Shown here in pieces: positions 1 to 18,978 of a stretch of DNA of 64,000 nt (the first letter of the stretch is position 1; the number at the start of each line of letters is the position of its first letter). Both the position numbers and the translations under genes were made by a program. This DNA comes from Calditrichota bacterium (GTDB taxonomy: Bacteria > Zhuqueibacterota > Zhuqueibacteria > Thermofontimicrobiales > Thermofontimicrobiaceae), in the NCBI GenBank assembly GCA_013152715.1, contig JAADFU010000094.1, positions 12,610 through 76,609 on the forward strand, written 5' to 3'. The notes under the pieces were generated by a model, which was not told the DNA's origin, did no database searches, and saw only the letters and a program-made list of their open reading frames with translations.

Positions 1-165
1 ATCAACAAAAAGCGGATGGAAACCATCAATGATTCAATTGATCGCATAAAAAACATTTTGAATAAAATGCGCGCCTTGCAGGCAAAAACTATCAAAACGC
101 GCGACGCTTTGAGTGGTTTAGAAATCTTTGAATTAAATGAAAATGAAAATCAAATGATTGTGTGA
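1..165 (+). CDS. 3' end of an upstream gene (partial, continues before the window); C-terminal 54 aa, charged/helical, no recognisable family
   Basis: Open frame 1 from position 1 to TGA at 163-165, read directly from the sequence; overlaps or abuts the pilT start. Confidence 0.3.
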   Translation: MNKKRMETINDSIDRIKNILNKMRALQAKTIKTRDALSGLEIFELNENENQMIV

Positions 166-166
166 C

Positions 167-3021: not shown

Positions 3022-3996
3022 ATGAATAAAATTGTACGAAATACATTAATCCTGTCCTCGGTGTGGGTGCTCATGTTAATTATCGGTGTCATCTACATTT
3101 ACGGACATCAGAAAAAATTGCTCAATAAACTCAAAGCCGAAGAAAAACAAAAATCTGAGCGGCTGGCGGATTTGCGCTCGTTGCAGAATGATTTGACGGC
3201 GTTGGTAAATTATTATAAGCAATTGAAAGAAAATAGTTTACGATTTAAAGGTACTTTGGCGTCTTTTGTACTGCCTGGAGAAACTTTTGACTATATTCGC
3301 CGCGAACTGATTCGAACGAACTCTACCATAAAATTGGACATGGATTTTGAGAACGAAGAACCTTTTAAAAACATGATCAGACGAAATTATATTTTGAAAG
3401 GTACAGGCAAATTTACTGATATTTACAATTTCTTCTGGTTCTTAGAAAACGGACCGGTTTTTTATAATTTGGGCTCTTTAACGGTGGAAAAGACAGACCA
3501 AACTGCGGTCGCCGACGCGCTGCCTACTCCGGAAAAGGAAGCTTCATTCAATTTAAAGCTCGTTGGCTACGATCGCAAGGAAGGGCCAAACATAACGGAG
3601 ATCAATAATGAATATGGCGAGCCGGAGCGCATTGCAGACATATTCGAGGAAATCGCGCCTCGAAGTCGCTTCGCGGCAAATAAGCCCGCGCCTCGTTTCG
3701 CGGATAATAATTCGGCGCCGCCACGGATGAAAAGTCGCACTTTACAGCCGCAGGAAACAGCTAAAGCCAGAAATACAAGGGACTTGGCAAAGATGAGCAA
3801 CTCATGTGAAGTGCTGGCGATTACGCCATTTTCAGTGCTCATTAAAGACGCTAACGGAAAAATTATAAAGCTGCGCAAAGGTGATAAAATTTATGGCGGC
3901 ACATTGACAACATTGGACGCCAAAACAGGAAAGGCGATTTTTCAATACGACAATCAACCTGGAGCCAGGACATTTGTTTTGACAATGCAAAAATAG
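3022..3996 (+). CDS. PilO-like bitopic pilus alignment protein (N-terminal TM plus coiled coil) with a C-terminal beta-rich PilP-like domain
   Basis: Single N-terminal TM (LILSSVWVLMLIIGVIYIY) followed by coiled coil (KLKAEEKQKSERLADLRSLQNDL...). The C-terminal ~70 aa (ITPFSVLIKDANGKIIKLRKGDKIYGGTLTTLD...) resemble a small beta-sandwich. Gene order pilM/N-pilO-pilQ. Confidence 0.5.
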   Translation: MNKIVRNTLILSSVWVLMLIIGVIYIYGHQKKLLNKLKAEEKQKSERLADLRSLQNDLTALVNYYKQLKENSLRFKGTLASFVLPGETFDYIRRELIRTNSTIKLDMDFENEEPFKNMIRRNYILKGTGKFTDIYNFFWFLENGPVFYNLGSLTVEKTDQTAVADALPTPEKEASFNLKLVGYDRKEGPNITEINNEYGEPERIADIFEEIAPRSRFAANKPAPRFADNNSAPPRMKSRTLQPQETAKARNTRDLAKMSNSCEVLAITPFSVLIKDANGKIIKLRKGDKIYGGTLTTLDAKTGKAIFQYDNQPGARTFVLTMQK

Positions 3997-3998
3997 AG

Positions 3999-5642
3999 AT
4001 GACAACCATGAAAAGGATCATACTAACAACCGGGCTGGTAATGAGTTTATGCCTTGTGTCGGCGCTATTCGCCCAGAAAGAGCTGCCACGAGAATATACT
4101 CCGCCAGAAGAGTTGATTTCGCTGAACAGTGAAATTGACATCTCAACTGCGCTGGATTTGATCAGTGAGTACGCGATCCAGTTTGCCAAGAAACCAATCT
4201 ATGACCCCGATGGCCATTCCGGGCCTATCGGAGTTGATATTCGAAGTATTCCCTGGAAAAAGGCATTGGGCTTAATTCTCAGTCGACGGGGTTTGTGGTA
4301 TGCGGAAAAACCACGCTACATTCAGGTTATCAGCGCTGACGAGTACGAATCCATGCTCACTGGGGGTGGGGGAGAGGACATGAAGCTCGGCGCCGGCATG
4401 GATTTGAAACCCCACAGCCGGGAAGTAAAAATCGAGACCGTGTTTTTTGAAGGCGATAGAAAGGCGTTGAAAGAAATAGGTTTGGATTGGAGCACATTTT
4501 ATCAGGGAAAAGTACTTGTTGACGCCAGCCAATTGGGGACCCTGGATATTACTGACAACGTGTTTAATGTGGGCGCCAGAATTCCCAAAAAACTGATTGG
4601 CGTGGATTTGGAAGTGTTGCTGAAAGCTTTTGATTCAAAAAAAATTGGTAAAGTGTTAGCTCAGCCGCAAGTGGTCGTGACTGAGGGAAAAGAAGGAACT
4701 ATTCAGGTCGGACAGGATTTTTCGATCAAAGAACGAGATTTTGCCGGCAATATCATTGATCGTTTTTACAGTACAGGCACTATTCTCAAAGTAACGCCGT
4801 ACATCATTCAAAATACCGCGCCGGATGGCAAACCGCTTGAGCCGGTCATTTTTCTGAAAATCCATGTTGAGCGAAGCACGGCGCATCCGGATGTCGTCAG
4901 CACGATTATCAATAAATCCCAGGCGAATTCTTATTTGCAGCTTTATGACGGCGAGGAAACTTTGATTGCCGGGCTGTATTCCACTGAAAAAAATAAGGTT
5001 CGCAAGGGAGTGCCAATTTTAAAAGACATGCCGTGGTGGTTTTTGGGATTTCCGTACATTTTTGGATACAATCGCACCGAAGAAACTGAGAAAGAGTTGG
5101 TCATAATCATCAAAGCGACGCTGCTGAAAGACGTGCTCGTCCGTCAAAAAGTGACGAAAACGAATGCGATGAATCTAAGCCAAACGCTTGCGCAAAATTA
5201 TCGTAGCGACGCCTTTGTCAGAAATGATTTTTCTCAAATTCAAGCCAGTTCAGACTCGCCTGTACATAATTTTAGGGTGACAAGTCGACCGGAAGCCTCT
5301 TTGGTTTCCAATCCGACAGTGAAGCCGTTGGCAAACTCAATTCCCAAAGTGCAAAATCACAGTTCAATTACTCAATATTGCTTTGGCAAAATAATCAAAA
5401 TAAAGAACCAGTTGGCATTAATCTATTGGCAAAGAAAACCGGCGGAAATTAAAGTCGACGGCAAGATCGGATCAATTGTGAGAAAATCTAATTCTGCGCG
5501 AAAGGTCAATATTATTGCAGAAGCCAAAATTATCGGCACGCGACAGAATCGTTCTGTTGTCAAAATCAATAAAAGAAGATTTGATTCAACTATTCGTGCC
5601 GGAGATGTTTTTGTGATCAAAATAAACGCAACCGAGGATTGA
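3999..5642 (+). CDS. pilQ: Secretin (PilQ/GspD family) outer-membrane channel, short form with a ~180-aa C-terminal extension
   Basis: Signal peptide (MTTMKRIILTTGLVMSLCLVSALFAQ). Conserved secretin C-domain motif GVPILKDMPWWFLGFPYIFGYNRTEETEKELVIIIKATLL. An extra C-terminal region follows the secretin motif (…KVDGKIGSIVRKS…RAGDVFVIKINATED). Confidence 0.75.
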   Translation: MTTMKRIILTTGLVMSLCLVSALFAQKELPREYTPPEELISLNSEIDISTALDLISEYAIQFAKKPIYDPDGHSGPIGVDIRSIPWKKALGLILSRRGLWYAEKPRYIQVISADEYESMLTGGGGEDMKLGAGMDLKPHSREVKIETVFFEGDRKALKEIGLDWSTFYQGKVLVDASQLGTLDITDNVFNVGARIPKKLIGVDLEVLLKAFDSKKIGKVLAQPQVVVTEGKEGTIQVGQDFSIKERDFAGNIIDRFYSTGTILKVTPYIIQNTAPDGKPLEPVIFLKIHVERSTAHPDVVSTIINKSQANSYLQLYDGEETLIAGLYSTEKNKVRKGVPILKDMPWWFLGFPYIFGYNRTEETEKELVIIIKATLLKDVLVRQKVTKTNAMNLSQTLAQNYRSDAFVRNDFSQIQASSDSPVHNFRVTSRPEASLVSNPTVKPLANSIPKVQNHSSITQYCFGKIIKIKNQLALIYWQRKPAEIKVDGKIGSIVRKSNSARKVNIIAEAKIIGTRQNRSVVKINKRRFDSTIRAGDVFVIKINATED

Positions 5643-5645
5643 AAA

Positions 5646-8600
5646 ATGTGGCGCTATATTATTAATTTTGTAATCGTTGTCATCATCGGCATTCTGCTTT
5701 TTCTTTCTTGCGGACAGAGCGATGACATTGTGGGGTCTAAAAATGATTCCATTGAAGCCCTGGAGACGTCAGCGCCCGCGATTTTAGCGGACGGTTTGTC
5801 CACGGCAATCATCGTAGCGACGGTACTCGATTCCAGCGGCAAACATACGTCGGGTTTACCCGTTCATTTTGAAACGTCTGCTGGTGCGATCAATGAAATG
5901 GAATACACTGATGATGACGGAAACGCTTATGCCGTTCTGCAAAGCGTCGCCAGCAAAGCAGACCTGAAAGCGATAGTGACAGCGACTGTGCTGGATACGC
6001 TGCACCTTCTTCCCAAGGGCGCCGGATTTAATTTCGGCTTGAGGCTCTCTGTCAAGGGCATGAAATCACTGCCCGGACGAAAATTTGATTTGAAAAAATC
6101 GTCGGTAACGGGCGAGAATTCTGCCTCTATCCAGGTTAATTTTATTGGCATCGCTTTTGTCGGAGAATTGGAAGAAGCGTCCATTCCGGCAGATGGAATT
6201 TCAACGGCAAGATTGAAAGTGACGATTAAAGAGACCACGAGCAAAAAGGCGATAACCGACGCCGAAGTTTCCGTCGCGGCGACTTACGGCACAATTGTCA
6301 ATAAGATCAAAACGGACAACCAGGGACTTGCCCAGACGGATCTCACCGCGGCTACTGTTGAAGGCACCGATTCGATCTATCTGGAATACGGAAATGTTTT
6401 TCGCGACACGCTTTTCATTGATTACGAAAAACCCAACATTTCGATTTCTCCCAAAACTGCTTATTTAATTGCGGACGGGAGCAGCAAGACAACGTTCACC
6501 GTAGCTGTGAAATCAAAGAAAAATACGCCTATCGTCGATGCGGAAATTCATTTTTCCGCGACAGACGGAACCATTGCTCCGAGCGTAATTGCTACAAATA
6601 GCGAAGGAATCGCTCAGGCGACGCTCACCAGCGTTGCCAAAGTGGATACGAATGTATTGGTTATCGCCAGTTTGCATCAGTTTGCTGATACTGCTCGCGC
6701 GCGATTTATCAAGCCAATCCTGAGTTTGACGCCAGAAAGCGGGGAATTGCCGGCAGATGGCAGCAGCGAAATGGATTTCGCTGCCTCTCTTGTATTGCCG
6801 GATAATACGCCGGTTGTCGGAGCGGAAATAAGTTTTTCGACGTCAGCGGGAACAATTACCCCGACTTCAGGGAAAACCGATGCCACCGGTTCTGTCAGCG
6901 CAACACTGAAGAGCGATTTTAACGAAAATGAAAATGTGATTGTTAAAGCTGTTTTTCAAGAGTTGCAAAAAACAGCGACGGTTCGTTTCTCACTGCCAGT
7001 ACTCACGATTTCTCCTGCGGAAGCAAAATTGCTGGCTAACGGCAGCAGCAAACAGACATTCACCGCCGCTTTAATATCGCAGAACAACGTTCCTATCGCC
7101 AACGCGGAAATAGAATTCTCGACCACCAACGGGACTATTTCCAATTCTAGCGCGCTGACCAACGCCGAAGGAAAAGCGTCAACGGATTTGAGAAGCAGCA
7201 CTGTGCCCGACTCTAACGTGAAAGTGATCGCTCAATTCCACCATACGGCAGATACGGCGAACGTCGTTTTCATCCCTTCCTCGACAGAGAGCGGTTTAAA
7301 ATTAGAAGGTGAAAATGAATTGTTTCGCGATGGTATTTCTTCGACGACCATCACCGCCACTGTGCTCGATGAAAATGGAAACCCGGTATCCGATGCTACG
7401 GTTTTTTTCAGCGCTCAATACGGCACAATTCCACAGACAGCAGTCACCGGCTCGGATGGCAGTGCGGGCGTGACTTATATCGCCGATGTGGGCGAAAACA
7501 GCGTCTCAGACGAAATCACGGCTACCGTCGGCTCCGCAACCGTGAGCCACGTCATTTCGCTGCGCGGATTGACAATGACGCTTTCGGCTTCGCCGGATTC
7601 CATTCCTGCGGACGGAGTATCGATCTCGACCATTTCCGTCCATCTCAAACAGACGGAATCGCAATTAGCTGTTTCCGGAATCAATATCACTTTTACAAGC
7701 GACCGGGGATTCATTGGGACGACGGCTGCGACCAACGAACAGGGCGTGGCAAACATCGAGCTTCGATCCGCATCATCGCCAGGCACTGCCACAGTGACGG
7801 CGACGTACGGTCTTTTTGTCAAAACAGCAAATGTCCAATTTTATTTGAATTCGCCTCAGAGCATGATTTTGAGCGCTGACCCGAACTACATTTGGGTGAA
7901 AGAAACGGGCAATCTGGAGCAGACATTAATTACAGCGACGGTTTTAGGCGTACAAGGTCAGCCAATCGGCCATGAAGTTCCGATAAAATTTTACGTGCAA
8001 AATTCTCCGGATGAAAATCTCCCTGCCGATGAACAATGCGGCTTTGTGAACGAAGGCGGCGCCGTTGTGAGAGAGACGGACCCCATTTACAGCTCGGACG
8101 GATCGGCCAGTATCGGATTTCGCTCTGGCACAAAATCGGGAACCGTGGAAATTCGGGCGGAACTCGTCGAACAGCCGCAAACTTTATCGCGCCAGGCAGT
8201 GATCGTCATCCGTTCCGGCCCGCCCTACATCTGGATCGATCCGGCGGATCCCGACCACGTTTTGCCGAACATGACGCTTTATCTGGATTATTTCAATCAG
8301 GACGGCAAATATGCACTCCGCGAATACAAAGTCACTGCGCTGTTGGGCGATAAATACAATAACCCGGTCGAGCAAAACACGACAGTCTATTTCACTTCCA
8401 CGGGCGGAGTAATCACCACAGACACCAAAACATCCGCCGACGGATTTGCTCATGTGTCGCTTTTTTCGGGGAATCCGTTTCCCACAACTTGTCCCGCTGA
8501 TCCGCGGTTGAATCCGCATCAAATCCCAAATCCGAACGAGGAAGGGATGAATTTACCGATTATTTTGCCGGATTTTGAGATGGGCGAAGTGACAAATAGC

Positions 8601-9059
8601 TGCGGCGATACGGGCGAAAATGACGGCATTGCTGTAATTTACGCCTACACCTGGGGCAGAGACCAAAACGGAAATGATGCGACGGTTTTCACGACCACCA
8701 AGGCAGTATTTGGCGGTGCAATTACACATTTTGAAGTTTACGTGGATCCTCCGGTAGATTCATTGAATCCCGGAGAAGTCGCTAATATTCATATTCGCGT
8801 CTGGGACGAGCATGGCAATCCACCATCGGCTGGTTCGTCAATGTCTGCCTCCACTTCAGCGGGAAAATTATCCGTAGAAAAATTTATGCCGGACAAAGAT
8901 CGCTATGGATTTGGCAGTACTTATTTCACTACTTCACTGTTAAATAATCTGGACCCGATCGAAGACAAACCGCAAATGGCGGAAGTCACCATTAGTCTGG
9001 ATGCGCCGAATCCAAACGGGAAAATTAGCGGAACGGTTTATGTCTATTTAAAACTTTAG
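5646..9059 (+). CDS. Large surface lipoprotein composed of about 9-10 tandem bacterial Ig-like (Big_1/invasin-intimin type) domains plus a distinct ~280-aa C-terminal domain
   Basis: Lipoprotein signal with lipobox (LLFLSCGQ). Recurring ~90-aa units with signatures such as ATVTATYG, ISFSTSAGTITPTSGKTDATGSVSATLKSD, IEFSTTNGTISNSSALTNAEGKASTDLRS and VFFSAQYGTIPQTAVTGSDGSAGVTY, typical of Big_1 repeats. Confidence 0.7.
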   Translation: MWRYIINFVIVVIIGILLFLSCGQSDDIVGSKNDSIEALETSAPAILADGLSTAIIVATVLDSSGKHTSGLPVHFETSAGAINEMEYTDDDGNAYAVLQSVASKADLKAIVTATVLDTLHLLPKGAGFNFGLRLSVKGMKSLPGRKFDLKKSSVTGENSASIQVNFIGIAFVGELEEASIPADGISTARLKVTIKETTSKKAITDAEVSVAATYGTIVNKIKTDNQGLAQTDLTAATVEGTDSIYLEYGNVFRDTLFIDYEKPNISISPKTAYLIADGSSKTTFTVAVKSKKNTPIVDAEIHFSATDGTIAPSVIATNSEGIAQATLTSVAKVDTNVLVIASLHQFADTARARFIKPILSLTPESGELPADGSSEMDFAASLVLPDNTPVVGAEISFSTSAGTITPTSGKTDATGSVSATLKSDFNENENVIVKAVFQELQKTATVRFSLPVLTISPAEAKLLANGSSKQTFTAALISQNNVPIANAEIEFSTTNGTISNSSALTNAEGKASTDLRSSTVPDSNVKVIAQFHHTADTANVVFIPSSTESGLKLEGENELFRDGISSTTITATVLDENGNPVSDATVFFSAQYGTIPQTAVTGSDGSAGVTYIADVGENSVSDEITATVGSATVSHVISLRGLTMTLSASPDSIPADGVSISTISVHLKQTESQLAVSGINITFTSDRGFIGTTAATNEQGVANIELRSASSPGTATVTATYGLFVKTANVQFYLNSPQSMILSADPNYIWVKETGNLEQTLITATVLGVQGQPIGHEVPIKFYVQNSPDENLPADEQCGFVNEGGAVVRETDPIYSSDGSASIGFRSGTKSGTVEIRAELVEQPQTLSRQAVIVIRSGPPYIWIDPADPDHVLPNMTLYLDYFNQDGKYALREYKVTALLGDKYNNPVEQNTTVYFTSTGGVITTDTKTSADGFAHVSLFSGNPFPTTCPADPRLNPHQIPNPNEEGMNLPIILPDFEMGEVTNSCGDTGENDGIAVIYAYTWGRDQNGNDATVFTTTKAVFGGAITHFEVYVDPPVDSLNPGEVANIHIRVWDEHGNPPSAGSSMSASTSAGKLSVEKFMPDKDRYGFGSTYFTTSLLNNLDPIEDKPQMAEVTISLDAPNPNGKISGTVYVYLKL

Positions 9060-9171: not shown

Positions 9172-9663
9172 GTGATGATGCAGAATTTTCTATTGATCGG
9201 CGCTTTTGTGATTTTAGGAATATTAATTTTATCAATTAACAGCACAATTTTTGTCACCAACAAAGCGATTACAGAGAACGAAGTACATATTACGGGAATC
9301 GGTCTGGGGCAAGCGCTGATAGAAGAAATCACTTCGCGGTCTTTTGATGAAAATACGACCGGATCAAAAAGGGTCGCCTCTCCTTCTCAATTGACGGGTG
9401 TGGACAATCTGAGCAAAGAAACTGGAGAGCCGCCTTTTGACGACGTAGATGATTACAACAATTTCAGCAAAAAGGTCGATACGCCGCGAATCGAGGGGTA
9501 CGTGATTAATGTGAAAGTTGGCTACGCGAATCCGTTGACTCAGAGAAATTTTATTAGTACGAAAACATATCTCAAAAGAATTGAAGTGACGGTAAAAAAT
9601 CCGAAATACATGCACAATCCGGATTCGCTGATTTTAGCGACGGTAGTTTCGTATTTCAAATAA
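9172..9663 (+). CDS. Pilin-like protein A (N-terminal hydrophobic anchor, no canonical G/FxxxE prepilin motif); paralog of 11426-11929
   Basis: N-terminal helix MMMQNFLLIGAFVILGILILSIN. Shares blocks with the paralog: IEE...FDEN, PPFDDVDDYNNFS vs PYFDDIDDFNGFS, TKTYLKRIEVTVKNP vs SRTYFKRMVVEIFSP. Confidence 0.4.
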   Translation: MMMQNFLLIGAFVILGILILSINSTIFVTNKAITENEVHITGIGLGQALIEEITSRSFDENTTGSKRVASPSQLTGVDNLSKETGEPPFDDVDDYNNFSKKVDTPRIEGYVINVKVGYANPLTQRNFISTKTYLKRIEVTVKNPKYMHNPDSLILATVVSYFK

Positions 9664-9675
9664 AACAGGAGAACG

Positions 9676-10257
9676 ATGCAAACGGCTTTCAACATAATGA
9701 TTTCAATTGTCATTTTTTCACTTTTAATGATGATAGTCGTCGGCGTCGATGGCAACGTGAAATCTGTTTCCAGGCAGTTGTCAGGCGACAAAATCGCCCA
9801 GGAAATGGTCGTTGGAATTGCCGAGTTAATCGACCATGATTTTGCCAAAATTGGCTACATGAAAACCGCTCCTAAATTTAAATTAGGAGCGTTGGATTCA
9901 AATAAAATCACTTTTTATTGCGATTATGACAATAATGGGCTCATGGATTCGGTTTCGTTTTATTTTGACCGGAAAGTCAGTGCTGTGAAATCCAATCCAC
10001 ACATTCGCCACCTGTATCGCAAGATGAATAATCAAAATCCCGAAAAAGTTGCTTTGGGAATTGTTTATTTCAATCTCGCTTACTTTGATGAAAATATGAA
10101 TCCTATCAGCTACGGCAAATTAGCGGATGTGAATTATGTGAATCAAATTAAAGCGATTCGGGTCCGTTTGCGTGCAGAGACTCAATTTCAAATTGAAAAT
10201 CATTTCGGGAGCGCTTATTGGGGAAAAGTCTATTTCCCCAAAAATTTAAATTTATAG
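9676..10257 (+). CDS. Pilin-like/minor-pseudopilin-like protein B (N-terminal TM anchor); paralog of 11950-12534
   Basis: N-terminal helix IMISIVIFSLLMMIVVG. Similarity to the paralog (e.g. ELIDHDFAKIGY vs DILEYDFRKIGH). Size class (193 aa) resembles GspJ/PilW-type minor pilins. Confidence 0.35.
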   Translation: MQTAFNIMISIVIFSLLMMIVVGVDGNVKSVSRQLSGDKIAQEMVVGIAELIDHDFAKIGYMKTAPKFKLGALDSNKITFYCDYDNNGLMDSVSFYFDRKVSAVKSNPHIRHLYRKMNNQNPEKVALGIVYFNLAYFDENMNPISYGKLADVNYVNQIKAIRVRLRAETQFQIENHFGSAYWGKVYFPKNLNL

Positions 10258-10278
10258 AACCATAAATCAGCAGAGATT

Positions 10279-11322
10279 TTGCAAATGGGAAAAGCCGCGC
10301 TGTTCATAGTGATTGGATTGTCCGTTTCATTGGCATTTATAAAATTGGCCTTGATCGGTTATCCGGTCCAGTCGATGACCAACACCAGCGATTATTTTAG
10401 TTCGGTGACCGCGACTAATATTGCCCGGTCAGCGCTGAATAATTATCTGAAAAAGCTAAATCAGAATAAATCATTGCACGGTACTTTTGTCGAGGAAGAT
10501 CAATATATGGAAGGCGGAATCGACACGGTTGCCATTTCATCGGCTTCCGCTAATCCAACAATCGGAGATACAATTTCAGTAGCGGTAAAAGCTTGGTACA
10601 ATAAAAAAAGAAAAGAAGCTTCGGCGAAAATAGTATTGTCGAAATTAACAATACCGCCGCTGGAGGCGGCTGTCGCTTTCCCGGGTCAGAATCCGGTGCT
10701 TGATCTCAACGGCGCGCCGCTAATCGATGGCAATAATCACGACTATACCGGAAATTTGTCGTCTGATTCCAGCGATTTGCCTGGCGTCGCCGTTCACTCA
10801 ACAACGGATAGCGTCAACATCGTACAAAAACTTTACCATGACAAACAAGAAGATCACGTCGTTGGATTTGGCGGAATGCCCAGTGTACACGTCAAAGCAG
10901 TAGATGATCCGTCGGTTTTTATCGATCCCATTACTGCCAGCGCTGATTACCGTCTGCCAGCGGGAACCTATAGTTCGGTGACATTTGGATCCAAAAATAC
11001 GCCGGTTATTGTTTACGGACAGGGTGATTTGAAATTTTCCGGCGGCGTTGTCGGTCACGGAATTTTGGTAATCGATGGCACTTTGACGCTGTCAGGCAAT
11101 TTTTTCTGGTATGGCATCGTTTACGTCGTCGGACCCTCGCCGGAAATCTTCAACTCGGTGGGTACGAACAGGATTATCGGCGGTGTGGTACTCGGCGGTA
11201 AAGATAAGACCGCTCGTTTGCGCGGCACTGCAGATATTCAGTACAGCTATGAAGCTGTTGAAAATGTGCGAAACAACACAAAAAGTCTTTTGACAATGAA
11301 TTTGATTTCATGGTTCGAATAA
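10279..11322 (+). CDS. Large pilin-like/PilX_N-like anchored protein C with beta-rich C-terminal domain; paralog of 12560-13825
   Basis: N-terminal helix MQMGKAALFIVIGLSVSLAFIKLAL (PilX N-terminal-like, no Glu+5). Gly-rich beta-strand repeats (GGVVGHGILVIDGTLTLSGNFFWYGIVYVVG). Size (347 aa) comparable to GspK/PilX-type tip pseudopilins. Confidence 0.35.
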   Translation: MQMGKAALFIVIGLSVSLAFIKLALIGYPVQSMTNTSDYFSSVTATNIARSALNNYLKKLNQNKSLHGTFVEEDQYMEGGIDTVAISSASANPTIGDTISVAVKAWYNKKRKEASAKIVLSKLTIPPLEAAVAFPGQNPVLDLNGAPLIDGNNHDYTGNLSSDSSDLPGVAVHSTTDSVNIVQKLYHDKQEDHVVGFGGMPSVHVKAVDDPSVFIDPITASADYRLPAGTYSSVTFGSKNTPVIVYGQGDLKFSGGVVGHGILVIDGTLTLSGNFFWYGIVYVVGPSPEIFNSVGTNRIIGGVVLGGKDKTARLRGTADIQYSYEAVENVRNNTKSLLTMNLISWFE

Positions 11323-11425
11323 TTTTTATCACATGATTGTCACTGAGATTATTAACTCACAGTTAGTGATTTTGCGCGGCAACGATCTTATTTGTAATTA
11401 GTTATTTAAAATTGGGTTAAGAAAA

Positions 11426-11929
11426 ATGGGAAAAGGCGATCTGATTTTGGTCATCGGCGGACTTTTGCTGCTGTCAATGTTCACGCTTACAATAAACAGC
11501 TCGATTCGTGAGAATCAAAGCACGCTTTATTCAAGCGAAAGCGTCTTGAATGGATTAGTTTTAGCGCAAAAGTACATTGAAGAAGCGGAAGCGCTGCGCT
11601 TCGATGAAAACAAATCCGCGACGATTCCCAGTTCGTTCACCAAGCCGATTCGTCTGGGCCCTGACGGAAATGAGCATTATCCTTATTTTGACGACATCGA
11701 TGATTTTAACGGTTTTTCTGTTACAGATACATTGTCGGGAAACGTACCTTACACAATTTATATCAGCGTTTTTTATGCAACATTAACGAAGCCGGATAAA
11801 GTTTCTACCAGCCGAACCTATTTCAAAAGGATGGTAGTGGAGATATTTTCACCATTTATGAAAGATGCAGGCGATAAAACGATCACTTTGAAAAAACTTT
11901 TTGCTTATCATTATTTTTATAGTCAATAA
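11426..11929 (+). CDS. Pilin-like protein A' (second copy of the cassette)
   Basis: N-terminal helix DLILVIGGLLLLSMFTLTIN. Conserved blocks shared with 9172-9663 (see that entry). Confidence 0.4.
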   Translation: MGKGDLILVIGGLLLLSMFTLTINSSIRENQSTLYSSESVLNGLVLAQKYIEEAEALRFDENKSATIPSSFTKPIRLGPDGNEHYPYFDDIDDFNGFSVTDTLSGNVPYTIYISVFYATLTKPDKVSTSRTYFKRMVVEIFSPFMKDAGDKTITLKKLFAYHYFYSQ

Positions 11930-11949
11930 AAAATTGAGACGGATTTGCC

Positions 11950-12534
11950 ATGAATGCTATTAGAGAAACATTATTAGCGCTATTTTTCGCCGGATGGATT
12001 ATCATGATAGGCCTCCGGGTAAATACAAACTCGACATTGCATCTTTACAACACCCAGCGGAGCGCCATCAATCAAGAAAATTTGCACGTTGTTACTGACA
12101 TTCTGGAATATGACTTTCGCAAAATCGGACATGGATTGCTAAATCCGCTCGGCGCGATTCAAGTCGCCGACAGCAATCGCATCGTGTTTTCTTATGACAA
12201 AGATCCATCATTAGTTTACGATTCCATCAGAGTTGTTTACAAGATGGTTCCAGTTAAACATAAGAACCACAAATTCAACAAGATACTCATACGCAAAGAA
12301 AATTCAAATAAAATTACCCGTTTTCCGTTTGGCATTTCCAGATTCAATTTGAAGTATTTCAACAAATTTGGGAAAAATTTGCCGACGCCGGTTGTCTCCG
12401 ATTCATTGGCAAGTATCCGGGAAATTGAAATCTCTTTGACGTTAGCGAGTAGTGACCTTGAAAAAGATGAATATGGAGAAGCGAAATATGTCACCAGAAT
12501 TGTGCCAAAAAATTTATTGAGCCATTATGATTGA
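11950..12534 (+). CDS. Pilin-like protein B' (second copy)
   Basis: N-terminal helix LLALFFAGWIIMIGL. Paralogous to 9676-10257. Confidence 0.35.
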   Translation: MNAIRETLLALFFAGWIIMIGLRVNTNSTLHLYNTQRSAINQENLHVVTDILEYDFRKIGHGLLNPLGAIQVADSNRIVFSYDKDPSLVYDSIRVVYKMVPVKHKNHKFNKILIRKENSNKITRFPFGISRFNLKYFNKFGKNLPTPVVSDSLASIREIEISLTLASSDLEKDEYGEAKYVTRIVPKNLLSHYD

Positions 12535-12559
12535 CTAGAAAACTACAACAGGTGAAATC

Positions 12560-13825
12560 ATGGGACGTTACATCGCTTTCATTATCATGGGGTTTTTCAT
12601 CAGTACTTCTACATTGCGGATGCAGGCAAATCGCTACACCACCGCCAGCGTGAATAATTTTTCGGATAAATACAAGAAATTAGTTGTCAAAAATGTCGCA
12701 AACACTGGCGCTACAATTGCATTAAATGCCTTGACAGTCAACATCAATGAAATAAAAGGCATTAAAAATCAGCCTATTGATGGCGGTCATTTTTCTTACT
12801 TTCTTGAAAGACAAAAAGATGATCCAAAGTTAGGCCCGACTGAGATAAGAGTCACTTCTATTGGTCACTTTATGAATAAGACAGACACGGTGATCGTTTT
12901 GCTAACGCGCCCCTCATTTTCACGCTATGCCTATTTCACAAATCACGAAGGAAATATCTGGTTTGCCACAGGAGACACAATTTACGGTCCCTGCCACACA
13001 AACACTTATTTTCAGATGGCAGGACGACCTGTTTTTTACGGAAAAGTGACGAGCGCAAAAGTCTATAATTCACATAGCCCTTATCGTAAATATTACTACG
13101 GCCTGACAGATCCCAAATTTTACGGCGGCACAGAATGGGGAATTCCTAAACTTCCTATGCCGACTCAAATTCCTCAGGACTTAATCGATGCCGCGAAGAA
13201 CGGAGGCATCTACATTTCAAAAAGGCACGTCTGGATGAAGTTCCGATCGAACGGCACAGTGAAAATCGCAGCGAAAAATTCTTCGAAAACGCCCAAATCA
13301 TGGGAATATACAACTTACAACCTCAATAGCACAAACGGCGTTATTTACATCACGAATAGCGGCTCAAGGCCAACAGTGCGCGTCAAAGGCACAGTCAATG
13401 GAAAAGTGACTGTGGGAACCCGCGGCTACATGAGAATCACAGGCGACATCGTTTACGCCGATGATCCGCGCGTAAACCCAAACTCCAACGATTTGTTGGG
13501 ATTGCTTTCAGAACGAGATATTATTGTTTACAATAACCATCACGATCAAGATCGGACAATTCAAGCAAGCATTATGACTTTGGACCCTGCCACGGCTCCA
13601 AACAAGAATTTTTGGGTCGATCGCTACAAATATGATCGTTACGGACGTTTGCATTTATTGGGCGGTTTGATTCAAAATTCACGCGGCGCCGTGGGGCTGG
13701 TCGGAAGCTACTACAGCAGAAAAGGCTATCTCAAAGATTACCACTGGGACCAAAGACTAATGAAAATGAGCCCGCCTTATTTTCCTGCATTATTCGCTTT
13801 GCGCAAAATTTCCTGGTGGGAATAA
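12560..13825 (+). CDS. Pilin-like anchored protein C' (second copy, 421 aa)
   Basis: N-terminal helix YIAFIIMGFFISTST. Beta-rich Gly repeats (GTVNGKVTVGTRGYMRITGDIVYADD, HLLGGLIQNSRGAVGLVGSYY). Same position in the cassette as 10279-11322. Confidence 0.35.
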   Translation: MGRYIAFIIMGFFISTSTLRMQANRYTTASVNNFSDKYKKLVVKNVANTGATIALNALTVNINEIKGIKNQPIDGGHFSYFLERQKDDPKLGPTEIRVTSIGHFMNKTDTVIVLLTRPSFSRYAYFTNHEGNIWFATGDTIYGPCHTNTYFQMAGRPVFYGKVTSAKVYNSHSPYRKYYYGLTDPKFYGGTEWGIPKLPMPTQIPQDLIDAAKNGGIYISKRHVWMKFRSNGTVKIAAKNSSKTPKSWEYTTYNLNSTNGVIYITNSGSRPTVRVKGTVNGKVTVGTRGYMRITGDIVYADDPRVNPNSNDLLGLLSERDIIVYNNHHDQDRTIQASIMTLDPATAPNKNFWVDRYKYDRYGRLHLLGGLIQNSRGAVGLVGSYYSRKGYLKDYHWDQRLMKMSPPYFPALFALRKISWWE

Positions 13826-14176: not shown

Positions 14177-14192
14177 TGGTACGCTTTTTGTT
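14177..14192 (+). promoter_or_regulatory. Putative sigma-54 (-24/-12) promoter, near-consensus: TGGTACGCTTTTTGTT vs TGGCACG-N4-TTGCW
   Basis: GG at 14178-14179 and the conserved G at 14190 with correct 10-nt spacing, about 58 bp upstream of the DUF4347-like gene. A sigma-54 enhancer-binding protein gene lies immediately downstream. One mismatch in each element. Confidence 0.3.
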
Positions 14193-14249: not shown

Positions 14250-14876
14250 ATGCGTGAGGAAAAAACATTGTCGGGATGTGTGGTCATTTTTGGGATGCTG
14301 TTATTAATTTTTAGCGGGACGCATCAAATATGGGCACAAGCGAACCATTCAATGAAGCCGTTGAACGTCATTTTCGTTTCCAGCAAAATCCAGAATGCAC
14401 AAGCGATTGCCGACGCGGCAGACAAAGAGGCAGTGGCTGTCGTTTATGATTTTGAAAATACAACGCTGAGGCAAATTAATTTGACTCTGGAAGAATTAGT
14501 GCAATGGAAAGGGAAAAAAATTGACCATTTAATGTTCTTCTGCCACGGCGCGCCGGGGACGGTCATTTTAAGTGCTAAGGAAATTGTGGACGTGAAATCC
14601 GTGAAGAGCGAATCCGATGAATGGAAATTTTTCAGCAAAATGTTCAACAAAAATGCTACCATCGATTTTTATGGCAGTGAAATCGGCTGGGGCGAAGAAG
14701 GCAAACAATTGGTCACATTTCTCTCTCAGGTGACAGGCGCCACTGTTCGCGCCAGCGTCAATTCGTCCGGCAACATTCATGACGCCGATTGGAATTTGGA
14801 AATCAAAACGGGGAAAAATCAAATTCCCTGCCCAATTAATTTTTCGCAGTTAGCAAAAACGCCCCTGTATTTTTAA
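14250..14876 (+). CDS. Secreted standalone DUF4347-like domain protein
   Basis: Signal peptide (…LLIFSGTHQIWAQA|N). Mature part matches the DUF4347 pattern as I recall it: (FFCHGAPGTVILSAK ~ HxxSHGxxG; IDFYGSEIG ~ LLYGCNVA; GATVRASVNSSGN ~ GADVAAS; DADWNLEIKTG ~ GGDWxLE). That domain normally sits at the N-terminus of giant adhesin-like proteins; here it is 208 aa in total. Confidence 0.55.
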   Translation: MREEKTLSGCVVIFGMLLLIFSGTHQIWAQANHSMKPLNVIFVSSKIQNAQAIADAADKEAVAVVYDFENTTLRQINLTLEELVQWKGKKIDHLMFFCHGAPGTVILSAKEIVDVKSVKSESDEWKFFSKMFNKNATIDFYGSEIGWGEEGKQLVTFLSQVTGATVRASVNSSGNIHDADWNLEIKTGKNQIPCPINFSQLAKTPLYF

Positions 14877-14999
14877 ATAGATGGCGCTGTTTAGTCAGCG
14901 CCTGTCCACTGCCGCTGGTTGTCGCCCCTCTGCCAGCGGCATGGGCTTTTTCTGATGATCAACAAAATTTGGCCAATCACAGCGAATGAGAACACAGCT

Positions 15000-16394
15000 A
15001 TGGAAAATGAAAACAATGATCCGAGAACAGTTCTGGTGGTCGACGATGATATTGTTGATCTGAAAATTATGGAGCGTTTTTTCTTAAACAATAATTATCC
15101 GCATCTGCTCGCTAAAAATGCTGCTGACGGTTTATTGCTTTACCACAAACATTATCCGAAAATCATTTTCATCGATTTGCTGCTTCCGGACATGAATGGT
15201 ATTACATTGATGGAAGAAATTATCCGTGAAGATCCCGAAGTCTCCATCGTCATCGCTACGGGCCACGCTTCAGTGGAAACTGCGGTCGAGGCGATCAAAA
15301 AAGGCGCCTGCGACTATATCACCAAGCCTATTGATATGTATCAGTTGTCGCTTTTGACAGAACGTCTGGTAAAATCGCAGCAAGTTTTGCTGGAAAAAAA
15401 TCTTTTGCAGGCGAGATTGGATGAATTGTTTGGGTTTCATAATTTTATCGGCCAAAGCCAGCAGATCAAAAATGTCATTCGTCAAATCTTGCAAGTCGCC
15501 CGCACAAGTGCGACAGCGCTCATCACCGGCGAATCCGGAACCGGAAAAGAACTTTGCGCCAATGCCATTCACCAATCCAGTCCAAGAAAAAATAAACCAT
15601 TCATCAAACTAAATTGTGCCGCTCTGCCTGAGAATATCATTGAAAGCGAACTTTTCGGCCATGAAAAAGGCGCGTTTACCTCAGCGATTCAAAAACGCAT
15701 TGGGAAATTTGAATTGGCGGACGGCGGCACCATTTTCCTGGACGAGATCGGAGACCTTTCAATTTCTATTCAAGCAAAACTGTTGCGCGTGCTCGAGAAC
15801 CAGGAATTTGAGCGAATTGGCGGCAATCAGACAATTAAAGTGGACGTGCGCCTCGTCGCCGCCACAAACAGAGATTTAAGACAAGCGGTGGAAAAGGGGC
15901 TTTTCCGCGAGGACTTATTTTATCGGTTGAATGTGGTTAATATTCATATTCCACCGCTTCGCGAGCGACGTGAAGATATTCCGGTGCTTCTGACTCATTT
16001 TCTCCAACATTTCGCGGAGCAGATGAATAAACCAATTAAGTCAATTTCGGCGAAGGCACAAGCGTTGCTCAACTCATATTCTTGGCCAGGCAATGTGAGA
16101 GAGTTAGTCAATACGATTGAGCGGGCAGTTGTTTTTTGCGAGTCAAGCACAGTAACGGAGCGGGACCTGCCAGATCAGATCGCCGGAGCAAGCAACGACC
16201 CAGCAAACTCATGGAATATGCCGTTGTTGCCTTTGGCTCAGATGGAAAAAAAGTTGATCGAGCGAGTGTTAATCGAAACCAATTGGAATTTACGTCGCGC
16301 TGCGAAAATTTTAAACATCCATCGTGGAACTCTTTACAGCAAAATTGAAAAACATGGGATTAAGAAAAACAAATTATTGATGGCGTTCAATTAA
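15000..16394 (+). CDS. Sigma-54-dependent Fis-family response regulator (NtrC/PilR-like: REC + AAA+ sigma-54 activator + HTH)
   Basis: Receiver domain (VLVVDDD…D…T…K). Sigma-54 interaction domain with Walker A GESGTGKE, the GAFTSA loop and LDEIGD. C-terminal Fis-type HTH (LRRAAKILNIHRGTLYSKI). The ORF track starts at 14919; the start at ATG 15000 (MENENNDPRTV) or 14955 is uncertain. Confidence 0.85.
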   Translation: MENENNDPRTVLVVDDDIVDLKIMERFFLNNNYPHLLAKNAADGLLLYHKHYPKIIFIDLLLPDMNGITLMEEIIREDPEVSIVIATGHASVETAVEAIKKGACDYITKPIDMYQLSLLTERLVKSQQVLLEKNLLQARLDELFGFHNFIGQSQQIKNVIRQILQVARTSATALITGESGTGKELCANAIHQSSPRKNKPFIKLNCAALPENIIESELFGHEKGAFTSAIQKRIGKFELADGGTIFLDEIGDLSISIQAKLLRVLENQEFERIGGNQTIKVDVRLVAATNRDLRQAVEKGLFREDLFYRLNVVNIHIPPLRERREDIPVLLTHFLQHFAEQMNKPIKSISAKAQALLNSYSWPGNVRELVNTIERAVVFCESSTVTERDLPDQIAGASNDPANSWNMPLLPLAQMEKKLIERVLIETNWNLRRAAKILNIHRGTLYSKIEKHGIKKNKLLMAFN

Positions 16395-17280: not shown

Positions 17281-18978
17281 TTGAAAATGGCATTTCAGGA
17301 AGATCAAGTTTTTATTCAGGAACTGATAAAAAAGGGGCTGATTACAAAATCTCAAATCATTCAATCGCAAAATTTGCTCCGTACTCAACTCAGTCGGGAA
17401 GGGATTACGAAAACATTGTTGTCTCATTTTAAGCTCGACGAAACAAAACTGGCGCAATCCATTGCAGAAATATTCAACGTGCCATTTATGGAGCAGGTAA
17501 ACGGCCTTTCGCGAATGGAAGTTGACGAACTCCAGACAGTGAATATTCCCGCTGATTTTCGTTTCATTCCTGTGCTGGTTGATATTAATGAAATCACCAT
17601 TGCCATCAAGGACCCGCCTTATCAGAAATTGGTTGAGTTTGTCAAAAAAGCGACCGACAAGCACATCATTACTCTTGTGCTCAAAAATTCCGATTTTGAA
17701 TATCTCAATGATGAAAAAGTCGCGGAGAAAAAGTCGGATAAGCCGCTAAAAATTGATTTCTCCAAACTCGATGTCGAGAAGCAGGGGCTTCGATGGGCAC
17801 GATCAGCAGAGCAGACCGGATCGCTACCTTCGGCGAAGAATGTACTTGATCGCTTACTGGAGACCGCTCGCGAAACCAACGCCAGCGATATCCATCTGGA
17901 AATTACATCTCAGAACACGTTGGTCGTCAGATTTCGCTTAAACGGCGTTCTTCAGCGAGTGGTCACGCTGCCTCAGAGTTACGCCTCATCCTTGCCGAAA
18001 GTAATCAAGCAGATAGCGAGCATTGATAATTTTGAGAAAAACAATATAGCAGAAGGAATTTTTTCGGAGCCATTGAGCGGCAATAAAATTCAGTGCCGCG
18101 TAAATATTATTCCCACCGCGACCAGCGAAAAAATTACTCTCCGCATGGTCAACGACCATCTGGATATTATTCGTCTGGAACGCTTGGGGTTATCGCTGCA
18201 TGATCTGCAGCGGATTCGTCGTCTTTTGTCTTACCACAATACTGTTATTTTATTCTCCGGCCCAGCCGGATGTGGAAAGACGACGACTTTGTACTCTGTC
18301 TTGAACGAGCTCAATCATTTCACGAAAAATATTACAACCATCGAAACGCCGGTGGAAGCTCATCTGGAAGGAGTTAATCAAATTTCTGTAACGACAAATT
18401 CAGATCTTGATTTTGCTAAGGTGATGAAAGCTTTGTTTCATCATGACGTGGATTCTCTGGCTCTGGGTGAGGTTCGCAGCAAGCAAGAGGCTGAGTTGCT
18501 TTTGGAAGCAGGCCTTTCCGGAATGACTGCTTTTGCCACGATTCAAGCGGCAGACGCAATAAAAACAATCTATCGTTTGAAAAATTTTGGCGTAGAGATC
18601 GAACAATTTGCGCTCGCTCTCCGCGGCATCGTTTCTCAACGATTTGTGCGCAAGGTTTGTCCTTATTGTCAGGCAGAATATCGTCCGGATGCGGAAATTC
18701 TGCAAAACGCCGGACTAAAAAGTCTGCCGGAAGATTTTAAATTTAAGCGGGGATTGGGCTGCAAGAATTGCCTGGGGACAGGCTATCTGGGGCGCATTCC
18801 CGTTTTTGAAGTTCTCATTTTCAATGAAACTCTGAGTTCGTTGGTTTTTCAAAACAAACCATATCGCGAACTTTTTTTAGCGGCGAAACATGAAGGCTTC
18901 ACTACCCTGCGCTATGACGGACTTCGCAAAGCGCTGGCAGGCATCACCACGCTCAACGAAGTCCTTCGAGTCACTTGA
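17281..18978 (+). CDS. pilB: Type IV pilus assembly ATPase PilB / GspE family
   Basis: N-terminal T2SSE_N/MshEN-like helical domain. Walker A GPAGCGKTT, Asp and His boxes. Tetracysteine zinc motif CPYC…CKNC typical of GspE/PilB. Confidence 0.85.
   Translation: MKMAFQEDQVFIQELIKKGLITKSQIIQSQNLLRTQLSREGITKTLLSHFKLDETKLAQSIAEIFNVPFMEQVNGLSRMEVDELQTVNIPADFRFIPVLVDINEITIAIKDPPYQKLVEFVKKATDKHIITLVLKNSDFEYLNDEKVAEKKSDKPLKIDFSKLDVEKQGLRWARSAEQTGSLPSAKNVLDRLLETARETNASDIHLEITSQNTLVVRFRLNGVLQRVVTLPQSYASSLPKVIKQIASIDNFEKNNIAEGIFSEPLSGNKIQCRVNIIPTATSEKITLRMVNDHLDIIRLERLGLSLHDLQRIRRLLSYHNTVILFSGPAGCGKTTTLYSVLNELNHFTKNITTIETPVEAHLEGVNQISVTTNSDLDFAKVMKALFHHDVDSLALGEVRSKQEAELLLEAGLSGMTAFATIQAADAIKTIYRLKNFGVEIEQFALALRGIVSQRFVRKVCPYCQAEYRPDAEILQNAGLKSLPEDFKFKRGLGCKNCLGTGYLGRIPVFEVLIFNETLSSLVFQNKPYRELFLAAKHEGFTTLRYDGLRKALAGITTLNEVLRVT

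Follow-up and report, generated by a model that had tools for sequence, protein, structure and literature searches.

The six plus-strand genes at positions 9172-13825 raise the question of what proteins that resemble pilins, and that offer no leader for a prepilin peptidase to remove, are doing among the genes for a type IV pilus. To our knowledge, all known pilins need a leader peptide for their processing, and we know of no described type IV filament (type IV pili, T2SS, Tad, Com pili, archaeal pili) that is not said to need the leader-removing prepilin peptidase. That pilins need prepilin peptidase processing is also stated in the literature (bioRxiv 10.64898/2026.02.12.705559). We consider it likely that the six genes code for type IV pilus minor pilins of the "core" type, in two paralogous sets of three, ABC and then A'B'C', with GspI-like, GspJ-like and GspK/ComZ-like subunits.

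Gene organization of the locus

The coordinates and lengths given for the six ORFs in the initial annotation are all correct, all six lie on the plus strand, and they stand in the window (the whole stretch of DNA analyzed, 64 kb) in the following setting.

158..1384, + strand: PilT-like retraction ATPase (NCBIfam PilT/PilU TIGR01420, E 4.6e-92, 308.9 bits, just under the 319 cut-off)
1401..3002, + strand: possible PilM-PilN fusion, from its position and one internal membrane segment only (no match in Pfam and NCBIfam searches)
3022..3996, + strand: possible PilO-like bitopic protein, from position only, with an N-terminal membrane helix (no match in the family search)
3999..5642, + strand: outer-membrane secretin (Pfam Secretin PF00263, E 1.5e-25)
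5646..9059, + strand: 1137-aa lipoprotein with Big_1/Invasin_D3 Ig-like repeats (Big_1 E 3.4e-76; Invasin_D3 E 1.7e-61)
9172-9663, + strand: A, GspI-like minor pilin of trio 1, 163 aa, leaderless, start M(M)MQNFLLIG...
9676-10257, + strand: B, GspJ-like minor pilin of trio 1, 193 aa, leaderless, start MQTAFNIMIS...
10279-11322, + strand: C, GspK/PilX-like tip pilin of trio 1, 347 aa; true start probably the ATG at 10285 (MGKAAL...)
11426-11929, + strand: A', GspI-like minor pilin of trio 2, 167 aa, start MGKGDLILVIGG...
11950-12534, + strand: B', GspJ-like minor pilin of trio 2, 194 aa, start MNAIRETLL...
12560-13825, + strand: C', ComZ/GspK-like tip pilin of trio 2, 421 aa, pilin module plus DUF4900 beta-solenoid
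14250..14876, + strand: DUF4347 protein with signal peptide (Pfam DUF4347, E 7e-28)
14919..16394, + strand: sigma-54-dependent response regulator of PilR/NtrC type (Response_reg, Sigma54_activat, HTH_8)
16464-16892, + strand: single-domain response regulator (Pfam Response_reg, E 5e-23)
16910-17248, + strand: double zinc-ribbon protein (Pfam DZR, E 3e-7)
17281..18978, + strand: PilB/GspE-type assembly ATPase (Pfam T2SSE, E 5.2e-79)

The trios are thereby flanked by the secretin and the PilT-like ATPase on one side and by the PilB-like ATPase on the other, all in one plus-strand block; neither a major pilin gene nor a PilC gene was found in the 64 kb window. Homologues of the possible PilM-PilN fusion sit between PilT and the secretin in seven related loci, and the place of the possible PilO-like gene upstream of the secretin is likewise kept in related loci. 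Of the related loci, only those of the closest relatives (L001 and L002) have the DUF4347 gene at this position. The 1137-aa protein, which carries a lipobox at its N-terminus (...LLFLSC), is a candidate tip-associated adhesin or secreted cargo, and the trios of KSB1 and Balneolaceae loci likewise have a giant gene of Ig-like or adhesin type immediately upstream.

Relationship between the two trios

The initial annotation had read the six genes as two tandem, diverged copies of a three-gene set at roughly 30% identity. Pairwise BLASTP bears out the homology for all three pairs, with 36% identity between A and A' (134 aa, E 2e-16), 28% between B and B' (181 aa, E 8e-14) and 24% between C and C' (E 9e-7), so that the identity figure stands for A and B and, for C, applies only within the pilin module, the N-terminal 100 aa. 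At the family level, C-type and C'-type proteins have about 106 N-terminal columns in common (hhalign 98.3%, E 2.4e-14) as well as a C-terminal SW[FW]E strand, and their large middle domains show no detectable likeness in the same comparison.

Across the related lineage, by which we mean KSB1, Calditrichia, Ignavibacteria and Balneolaceae, 24 loci hold one copy of the trio, 12 hold two and one holds three. The single trios of related KSB1 genomes share 39-59% identity with A'B'C' (42-54% for A' against the single A of other KSB1 MAGs), as against 24-36% with ABC. By these identities A'B'C' is the orthologue of the single KSB1 trio, and it is the ancestral set of the lineage; ABC is an additional, older-diverged set, the C protein of which carries another head domain.

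Folds and relatives of A, B and C

None of the six proteins matches any Pfam or NCBIfam pilin model, Pfam N_methyl and TIGR02532 included, and profiles with the helix removed gave no significant match to single E. coli GspG-K sequences (best A-GspI E 0.16, B-GspJ E 0.027). The structure-based assignments rest on models of B and C', both of which have a long N-terminal alpha-helix, hydrophobic in its first half, packed on an antiparallel beta-sheet. The predicted fold of B matches GspJ, in a model of moderate confidence (pLDDT 71.6) whose input alignment is dominated by distant Omnitrophota relatives. For C' the best structural match is the pilus tip protein ComZ. Its predicted fold is of the ComZ/GspK type: the sheet takes in a large additional domain, Glu+5 is missing and the gene comes last in the set, which are the traits of a GspK/PilX/ComZ-type subunit. 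Among the nearest solved structures for these models is also the T2SS tip GspI-J-K. Residues 113-166 of C' match Pfam DUF4900 (PF16241; 35.6 bits against a cut-off of 29.4). The head domain of C (230 aa) is unlike that of C': C matches neither DUF4900 nor anything in Pfam or PDB by sequence, and the sole relatives that align with it over the full length belong to Balneolaceae, where they are part of the first trio (24% identity, E 1e-17). A is assigned to GspI by its position and by weak T2SSI/gspI matches within its family, namely Pfam T2SSI in 2 of 38 members (E 0.002) and a full-length match of one canonical relative to TIGR01707 gspI (E 4e-4, below the cut-off); A and A' themselves do not match the T2SSI and gspI models.

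Omnitrophota and other phyla have the same A-B-C trio in ordinary pilus operons with a canonical G/FTLxE signal; the Omnitrophota relatives of C' (30-37% identity) are preceded, in PilT-PilB-PilC...secretin operons, by B and A genes with matches to Pfam N_methyl (22 of 63 B, 6 of 38 A). Even with the helix removed, the leaderless B family aligns with its canonical counterpart at 96.3% (hhalign, E 1.8e-9), and the leaderless A family with the canonical N_methyl A family at 87% (E 4e-6). In three loci (L059, L014 and L013) the trio lies directly 3' of a pilin gene, PilC and PilB, where PilC of L059 matches T2SSF (E 9.5e-32) and those of L013 and L014 are ORFs of similar size at the same position. 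Taken together with the place of the trio within a type IV pilus cluster, these matches favor the initial proposal of GspI/J/K- or PilV/W/X-like tip subunits.

N-termini without a leader

As first described, each of the six proteins has one N-terminal hydrophobic helix, which starts 2-6 residues past Met1. The class III signal of type IV pilins and pseudopilins is a short, basic leader with Gly(-1) as its last residue, which an A24 prepilin peptidase cuts off, N-methylating the subunit; the mature protein then has an acidic residue at +5, GspK-type tip subunits excepted. The canonical G(-1)...E(+5) signal (motif G[FMILVY][ST]x.E) is absent from all six and from the whole 64 kb window. Since the 4-18 in-frame codons between each start and the preceding stop hold no ATG, GTG or TTG, the missing leader does not depend on the choice of start codon; the leader is truly absent, and the earlier doubt about processing by PilD was well placed. 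Glu6 of B' aligns with E+5, and its Met1 with Gly-1, of canonical N_methyl relatives; A' starts MGKGD, with Gly4-Asp5; A and B have no acidic residue at the +5 position, and neither do C and C', as in GspK. The N-terminal tails have a net charge of 0 or -1, those of A and B being uncharged or acidic.

The same holds well beyond this locus. The strict motif occurs in 0/143 trio proteins of the lineage (0/46 A, 0/47 B, 0/50 C); outside it, in 8/10 A and 27/33 B. The A family comprises 1183 representative clusters at 50% identity, the best 150 of which are leaderless with the start pattern M-[GN]-[TS]-G-[QE]-[ML]-L-L, and residue 5 is Q in 63 and E in 32 of 148 representatives. Putative major pilins of the relatives, of which up to three tandem paralogues occur, start MGQQQLLLIVL, and MGQQQL is invariant from residue 1 in four lineages. 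The leaderless state is a property of the whole lineage, putative major pilins included.

It is conceivable, and in our judgment somewhat unlikely, that these proteins are prepilins of the ordinary kind whose class III signal is merely atypical and very short (for example MNTG/Q, MG/QQQ or MG/K, cut at the slash) and that a divergent peptidase encoded elsewhere processes them in the conventional way. Glycines do occur at suitable places, at residue 2 in 52 and residue 4 in 50 of 148 A-family proteins, at residue 4 in 28 of 47 B and at residue 2 in 44 of 50 C, and the gene for the prepilin peptidase often lies apart from those for the pilins and is treated as a "loner" (PMC6668835). However, A (MMMQNFLLI), B (MQTAFNIMI) and B' (MNAIRETLL), that is 3/6, lack Gly at residues 1 to 9; the invariant stretch of the putative major pilins begins at Met1, whereas canonical prepilin leaders vary; and the tails lack the positive charge typical of leaders. 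Nor was an A24 peptidase gene found in the 64 kb window or in the examined loci of the lineage, the sole one detected belonging to a Gemmatimonadota locus with canonical prepilins, and pilD is reported as not found in M. roseus.

A bolder reading, which we hold to be somewhat less likely than not, is that the whole branch (KSB1, Calditrichia, Ignavibacteria, Balneolaceae and related FCB-group lineages) makes all its pilins leaderless, both the MGQQQLLLIVL major pilin and the GspI/J/K-like trio, and assembles its pili without any prepilin peptidase. The initiator Met would then stand where Gly(-1) or Phe1 stands in other pilins, and the part of the canonical Glu5 would fall to the Gln/Glu at residue 5-6.

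Proposed function

On the paralogy, the folds of B and C', the gene context, the absence of the leader and its lineage-wide distribution established here, we build a mechanism modelled on GspI-J-K and on Thermus PilA2/PilA3/ComZ. By analogy with these, each trio would form a heterotrimer located at the tip, an arrangement supported by conserved adjacency (a B gene lies immediately upstream of the C gene in 85 of 109 cases) and by the duplication of the trio as a unit. Within the inner membrane, the N-terminal helices of the three subunits of one set would come together as a bundle; this bundle would prime polymerization of the major pilin, driven by the PilB-like ATPase, and the trio would finally cap the fibre. 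Its outermost part would then be the bulky domain of C or C', serving as a plug, adhesin or ligand receptor. Because C and C' share only the pilin module and differ in their heads, a cell could equip its pili with either of two tips, or make two specialized filaments, and we infer that the most likely function of ABC and A'B'C' is to provide two alternative pilus tips. Both sets are probably assembled without prepilin peptidase, all six proteins presumably entering the fibre uncleaved by it.

Another possibility, which we regard as quite unlikely, is that the cluster encodes a T2SS-like secretion machine, in which the trios cap a pseudopilus that stays short and periplasmic and drives cargo, such as the neighbouring Big_1 lipoprotein, out through the secretin, with two trios for two cargo specificities. 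It would suit the T2SS tip among the closest solved folds, the gene order of secretin, then at once the 1137-aa Ig-repeat gene, then the trios, the giant adhesin-like gene before the trios in several phyla, and the protein-secreting T4aP-like machines known in Bacteroidetes (Cytophaga; PMC6668835, PMC5553014). Against it stand the PilT-family retraction ATPase within the block, the tandem major-pilin-like paralogues of the relatives and the structural match of C' to a pilus tip protein; moreover, the giant proteins of Balneolaceae carry a T9SS sorting domain, which implies that they exit the cell by another route, and the Cytophaga system, unlike the present one, includes a gene for Peptidase_A24 as well as a pseudopilin of PulG type.

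That the six are bitopic inner-membrane/periplasmic look-alikes outside any filament (alignment-complex parts or Big_1 anchors, for example), in line with the "different class of bitopic periplasmic proteins" once offered as an alternative, is highly improbable: the missing cleavage motif, the lack of pilin-model matches and the trios of Balneolaceae and Melioribacteraceae, which have no pilus machinery within 10 kb, would agree with it, but the specific fold matches to GspJ and ComZ/GspK, the profile homology past the helix to N_methyl relatives in standard pilus operons, the GspK-like lack of an acidic residue in C and the acidic residue or Gln kept at 5-6 in B' and most A relatives all speak against it.

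The two-tip reading makes this locus a clean natural case of modular tip exchange, in which one pilin module bears two unrelated heads and the set is duplicated whole, and the model of C' would give DUF4900, an uncharacterised Pfam family, a structural role as a ComZ-like tip solenoid. It also brings to light a large family of true minor-pilin homologues without a leader, its A member alone being of the size given above. Should the leaderless branch be real, no earlier family of type IV filaments would have done without the A24 peptidase; since cultured members (Melioribacter, Caldithrix, Gracilimonas) exist, the entry of unprocessed pilins into the fibre is directly testable.

Comparison with known systems

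The trios resemble known minor-pilin tip sets, and what is unusual about them is the absence of the leader across the lineage; relative to the initial annotation, the new points are this lineage-wide leaderlessness, putative major pilins included, the differing C heads and the ancestral standing of the second trio. The Bacteroidetes "T2SS" of Cytophaga hutchinsonii and Flavobacterium is likewise T4aP-derived, comes from the same superphylum and has very divergent pilins and PilMNO-like proteins without family matches; the Peptidase_A24 and PulG-family pseudopilin encoded in the Cytophaga cluster were, however, not seen in the available sequences of the present system. The T2SS tip GspI-GspJ-GspK (E. 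coli 3CI0, Vibrio EpsI/J, Pseudomonas XcpV/W/X) differs more widely: with the helix removed there is no sequence-level similarity to E. coli GspI/J/K, there is no GspH-like gene, the inserted domain is a beta-solenoid here and alpha-helical in GspK, and a PilT-like ATPase is present here while the G(-1) cleavage site is absent. In Pseudomonas aeruginosa, the minor pilins of FimU-PilV-PilW-PilX-PilY1 share their operon with a large adhesin that is not a pilin, and together they prime assembly and make up the tip; here too a large protein gene, that of the Ig-repeat lipoprotein, adjoins the trios; yet no relationship links the Big_1 protein to PilY1, its gene lies upstream, and equivalents of FimU/PilE and canonical prepilin signals are missing.

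Thermus thermophilus PilA2, PilA3 (TTHA1219 type) and ComZ, described as type IV(-like) pilins, share only 12-14% sequence identity with the present proteins. They carry ordinary prepilin signals, and the Thermus competence pilins form a single set, as against two tandem leaderless sets in the window; DNA binding is a feature shown for Thermus ComZ, to which C' is likened by its predicted fold. In Myxococcus xanthus there are reportedly three minor-pilin clusters with PilY1, and several sets are said to prime different pili; as in cyanobacteria and M. xanthus, the genome here holds several paralogous sets of minor pilins. In cyanobacteria, several core minor-pilin sets prime specialised type IV pili, and in the PilX-type subunits the last strand is preceded by an inserted beta-solenoid, which has been proposed to plug the tip where PilY1 is absent (bioRxiv 10.64898/2026.02.12.705559). 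What sets the present locus apart from both is that its three-gene sets stand in direct tandem, that the heads of their tip subunits are unrelated and that the class III signal is missing from every subunit.

Two paralogous gene trios

The initial annotation had described six genes as two consecutive, diverged copies of a three-gene cassette, and all six are present as described, on the plus strand:

9172-9663, +, A, trio 1
9676-10257, +, B, trio 1
10279-11322, +, C, trio 1
11426-11929, +, A', trio 2
11950-12534, +, B', trio 2
12560-13825, +, C', trio 2

Intergenic gaps measure 12-25 nt inside each trio and 103 nt between trio 1 and trio 2. The tandem duplication, put at roughly 30% identity, held for A and A' (36%, E 2e-16) and for B and B' (28%, E 8e-14), but for C and C' it extends over the first 100 residues only (24%, E 9e-7); homology between the triplets, on which that reading had been staked, is thus detected by BLASTP for all three pairs. 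At the family level, C-type and C'-type proteins have about 106 N-terminal columns in common (hhalign, 98.3%, E 2.4e-14), together with a terminal SW[FW]E strand, and no relationship is detectable between their central domains of ~230-300 residues. The duplication is therefore real, and C and C' are one pilin module carrying different heads. Among the six proteins, the sole Pfam/NCBIfam match is the beta-solenoid family DUF4900 in C', a protein 82% identical to one from 'candidate division KSB1 bacterium 4484_87'.

An acidic DDxDD[YF] motif is conserved in the A family (FDDVDDYNN, A residues 89-97, window 9436-9462; FDDIDDFNG, A' residues 92-100, window 11699-11725) and missing from the short 139-aa A proteins of Balneolaceae; it is possibly a metal-binding loop.

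Absence of the prepilin leader

That the six proteins lack a PilD-type motif is borne out, and no upstream start restores one: in all six genes 4-18 codons, none of them a start codon, separate the start from the preceding in-frame stop, and mis-called starts hiding a leader were therefore rejected. The whole 64 kb window is free of canonical prepilin motifs.

Relatives of C' were scanned with one genome per species, which gave at least 495 loci; 80 were kept, and locus counts refer to these plus four further loci. Of the proteins from KSB1, Calditrichia, Ignavibacteria, Balneolaceae and LCP-89 (taxon names as in the records), none carries the strict motif G[FMILVY][ST]x.E (A 0/46, B 0/47, C 0/50); of those from other phyla, 8/10 A and 27/33 B do. 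An A+A' profile searched with full HMMER against 1.84 billion representatives (E <= 1e-3) returned 1183 clusters, and none of the best 150 of these carries the canonical motif. Their consensus start is M-[GN]-[TS]-G-[QE]-[ML]-L-L, residue 5 of the family being Gln in 63 and Glu in 32 of 148 sequences. The hydrophilic N-tail comprises 2-6 residues; A and B tails have a net charge of 0 or -1, C tails (MG[KR]) one of +1. The B alignment places Met1 and Glu6 of B' opposite Gly(-1) and Glu+5 of canonical relatives. Judged from the sequences, the leader is missing in fact and across the whole lineage. No description of leaderless pilins was found in the literature.

To look for a prepilin peptidase, 16 of the loci's 27 multi-pass membrane ORFs were run against Pfam, all locus ORFs underwent a motif scan, and E. 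coli GspO was compared by phmmer with all locus and window ORFs. One gene was found, in a Gemmatimonadota locus, a result that holds for these loci and the window. A very short leader might instead be cut after Gly by an unlinked peptidase, as the frequent Gly at residues 2-4 would allow; but the first nine residues of three window proteins contain no Gly, the N-tails are uncharged (A and B; C, +1) and pilD was reported as not found in M. roseus, which makes such processing rather unlikely.

Gene neighbourhood and related loci

The trios share one plus-strand block with a PilT-family ATPase, a secretin and a PilB/GspE-type ATPase:

158-1384, +, PilT-family ATPase, first gene of the block
between the PilT-family ATPase and the secretin, +, two proteins without family matches, in the places of PilM/N and PilO
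3999-5642, +, secretin
5646-9059, +, 1137-aa Big_1/Invasin_D3 lipoprotein, directly before the trio genes
3' of the six genes, +, DUF4347 protein
after the DUF4347 gene, +, sigma-54 response regulator, single-domain response regulator and zinc-ribbon protein
17281-18978, +, PilB/GspE-type ATPase, end of the block

No PilC or major pilin gene lies within the 64 kb window, and all 10 of the other large ORFs scanned elsewhere in it are housekeeping. Scans of the window for sigma-70 promoters, terminators and sigma-54 -24/-12 elements gave no excess over shuffles (for sigma-54, 33 found and 35 expected at 2-mismatch quality). One sigma-54-like element, TGGTAC-N5-TTGT (2 mismatches, window 14177-14192), is located 58 nt 5' of the DUF4347 gene; the sigma-54 activator gene comes after the DUF4347 gene.

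Several phyla have, immediately upstream of the trios, a giant gene of Ig-repeat or adhesin-like type: in KSB1 it encodes the Big_1/Invasin_D3 lipoprotein, in Balneolaceae a protein of ~2500 aa. The copy in locus L003 (1-6388), the only one from which domains are given, combines Invasin_D3 with Laminin_G_3 and a T9SS Por_Secre_tail. The shared position suggests that the giant gene and the trios are functionally coupled, its product being a tip adhesin or cargo.

Across the loci, a B-family gene is directly 5' of the C gene in 85/109, and profiles recognise the full A-B-C set for 56 of 109 C genes. Omnitrophota and several other phyla carry the trio in ordinary operons (PilT, PilB, PilB, PilC, pilins, B, C, PilM-like...secretin), with Pfam N_methyl signals in 22/63 B and 6/38 A members.

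Proteins of 131-146 aa whose start, MGQQQL, is invariant (consensus MGQQQLLLIVL) are encoded in four loci of relatives:

L059: 3189-3623, 4768-5202 and 18299-18733
L014: 4108-4518
L013: 4673-5110
L086: 6991-8289, -, three tandem copies, divergent from a trio

In L059, L014 and L013 they lie directly 5' of PilC-PilB-A-B-C. Where scanned they match no Pfam family, and neither NCBIfam nor PDB sequences gave a meaningful match; position, size and helix make them likely leaderless major pilins. Their invariance begins at Met1, whereas canonical leaders are variable.

The Calditrichia locus L059 (1-18022) holds two copies of a PilM/N-like, PilO-like and secretin set, flanking the pilin-PilC-PilB-trio-PilT genes. 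In a Melioribacteraceae MAG (L085: 6041-11383), too, two trios (161/202/411 and 166/199/460 aa) stand in tandem, flanked by sugar-nucleotide epimerase genes on one side and an aminotransferase gene on the other. The nearest 10 kb contain no pilus machinery, and one B homologue has a faint Pfam PpdB match. The B-type (GspJ-like) module also forms the N-terminus of proteins exceeding 1000 aa (L030: 6340-9612; L072, 1202 aa; L077, 1055 aa), of which at least that of L030 carries the canonical prepilin signal. All three have the look of modular pilins to which very large passenger domains are attached. Finally, a conserved Balneolaceae block 3' of the trios (L003: 11476-21470; same region in L017, L019, L020, L024-L028, L031, L033, L037 and L038) comprises one ~130-aa and four ~165-200-aa secreted proteins, ~277-aa and ~1000-aa proteins, chaperone/usher-like by size and order, and after these a ~615-aa FliG_M/FliG_C/FliG_N protein, a TPR protein and a MotA_ExbB protein, the FliG-like protein adjoining a MotA/ExbB channel outside any flagellar operon.

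Relationship to minor pilins

Predicted structures cover B and C'. The B model (pLDDT 71.6), limited in quality by an alignment dominated by distant, almost all Omnitrophota, relatives, has strong fold matches to GspJ-type proteins only (TTHA1219 11.0, EpsJ 10.4, XcpW 10.0, GspJ 9.7; next 5.3); a single-sequence search with B returned just 2 homologues. Canonical members of the A family weakly match GspI models (Pfam T2SSI, E 0.002; TIGR01707, E 4e-4, full length). Profile searches against PDB sequences with the A family, the short-C family of Balneolaceae and the MGQQQ pilins gave nothing meaningful, and helix-less family profiles were not significant against single E. coli K-12 GspG-K sequences (hhalign). 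Helix-less leaderless families do match the canonical ones (hhalign; B 96.3%, E 1.8e-9; A 87%, E 4e-6), which makes the window proteins akin to true prepilins by descent, beyond shape.

From the fold matches and the weak GspI-model matches, the trio's counterparts are GspI-J-K or Thermus PilA2-PilA3-ComZ. In ComZ, a GspK-like pilin, a beta-solenoid is inserted ahead of the last strand, and a tip location has been argued for this protein (PMC6561018). The annotated reading of two paralogous sets of GspI/J/K-like tip subunits is supported by the B fold, the weak GspI-model matches and the match of C' to ComZ: the six genes are two paralogous GspI/J/K-type (ComZ-type) minor-pilin sets. A secretion pseudopilus serving the adjacent Ig-repeat lipoprotein would accord with the conserved adjacency to that gene; PilT, the multiple major-pilin paralogues and the ComZ match speak against it, and we regard it as improbable. 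Bitopic periplasmic proteins of another class were the annotation's alternative; such non-filament proteins, contradicted by folds and homology, are very hard to credit.

Origin of the duplication

Other KSB1 MAGs (L006-L008) have a single trio, to which A', B' and C' are 39-59% identical and with which they group in neighbour-joining trees. A, B and C are a distinct set, encountered solely in the window and the relatives closest to it (L001, L002, L005). C has full-length relatives only in the short C proteins of Balneolaceae (367-376 aa; 24% identity, E 1e-17), which likewise belong to the leading trio where there are two or three. The pattern indicates either an old duplication followed by losses or trio transfer between lineages. 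A recent duplication was rejected on the identities of 24-36% and the different head domains. Loci of this lineage have one (24 loci), two (12) or three (one) trio copies, Balneola and Ignavibacteria having their own, more recent duplicates. The duplication always takes all three genes together, as expected for co-adapted partners.

Proposed function and comparison with known systems

Each trio would form a cap like that of GspIJK, priming the fibre and coming to rest at its tip, with the head of C or C' as the exposed element; two sets would then give two alternative tips, or two specialised pili. The subunits could be extracted from the membrane into the fibre without cleavage, since they start near mature-pilin residue 1 and have no positive N-tail. 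We infer that the trimer forms, that it sits at the tip, that the two sets are used differentially and that no peptidase is needed; the leaderless state and the swapped heads carry a testable, potentially surprising implication.

With an A24 peptidase of its own, the Bacteroidetes 'T2SS' of Cytophaga is distinct from the system of the window, and identity of the cluster with it was rejected on that ground. In M. xanthus, several minor-pilin sets reportedly serve alternative or specialised pili. Several sets with such uses are described in cyanobacteria (bioRxiv 10.64898/2026.02.12.705559). Minor-pilin sets of the GspI/J/K (ComZ) kind are already known, as is the idea of several sets; what is new is that the N-termini are leaderless across the lineage and that the head domains are swapped.
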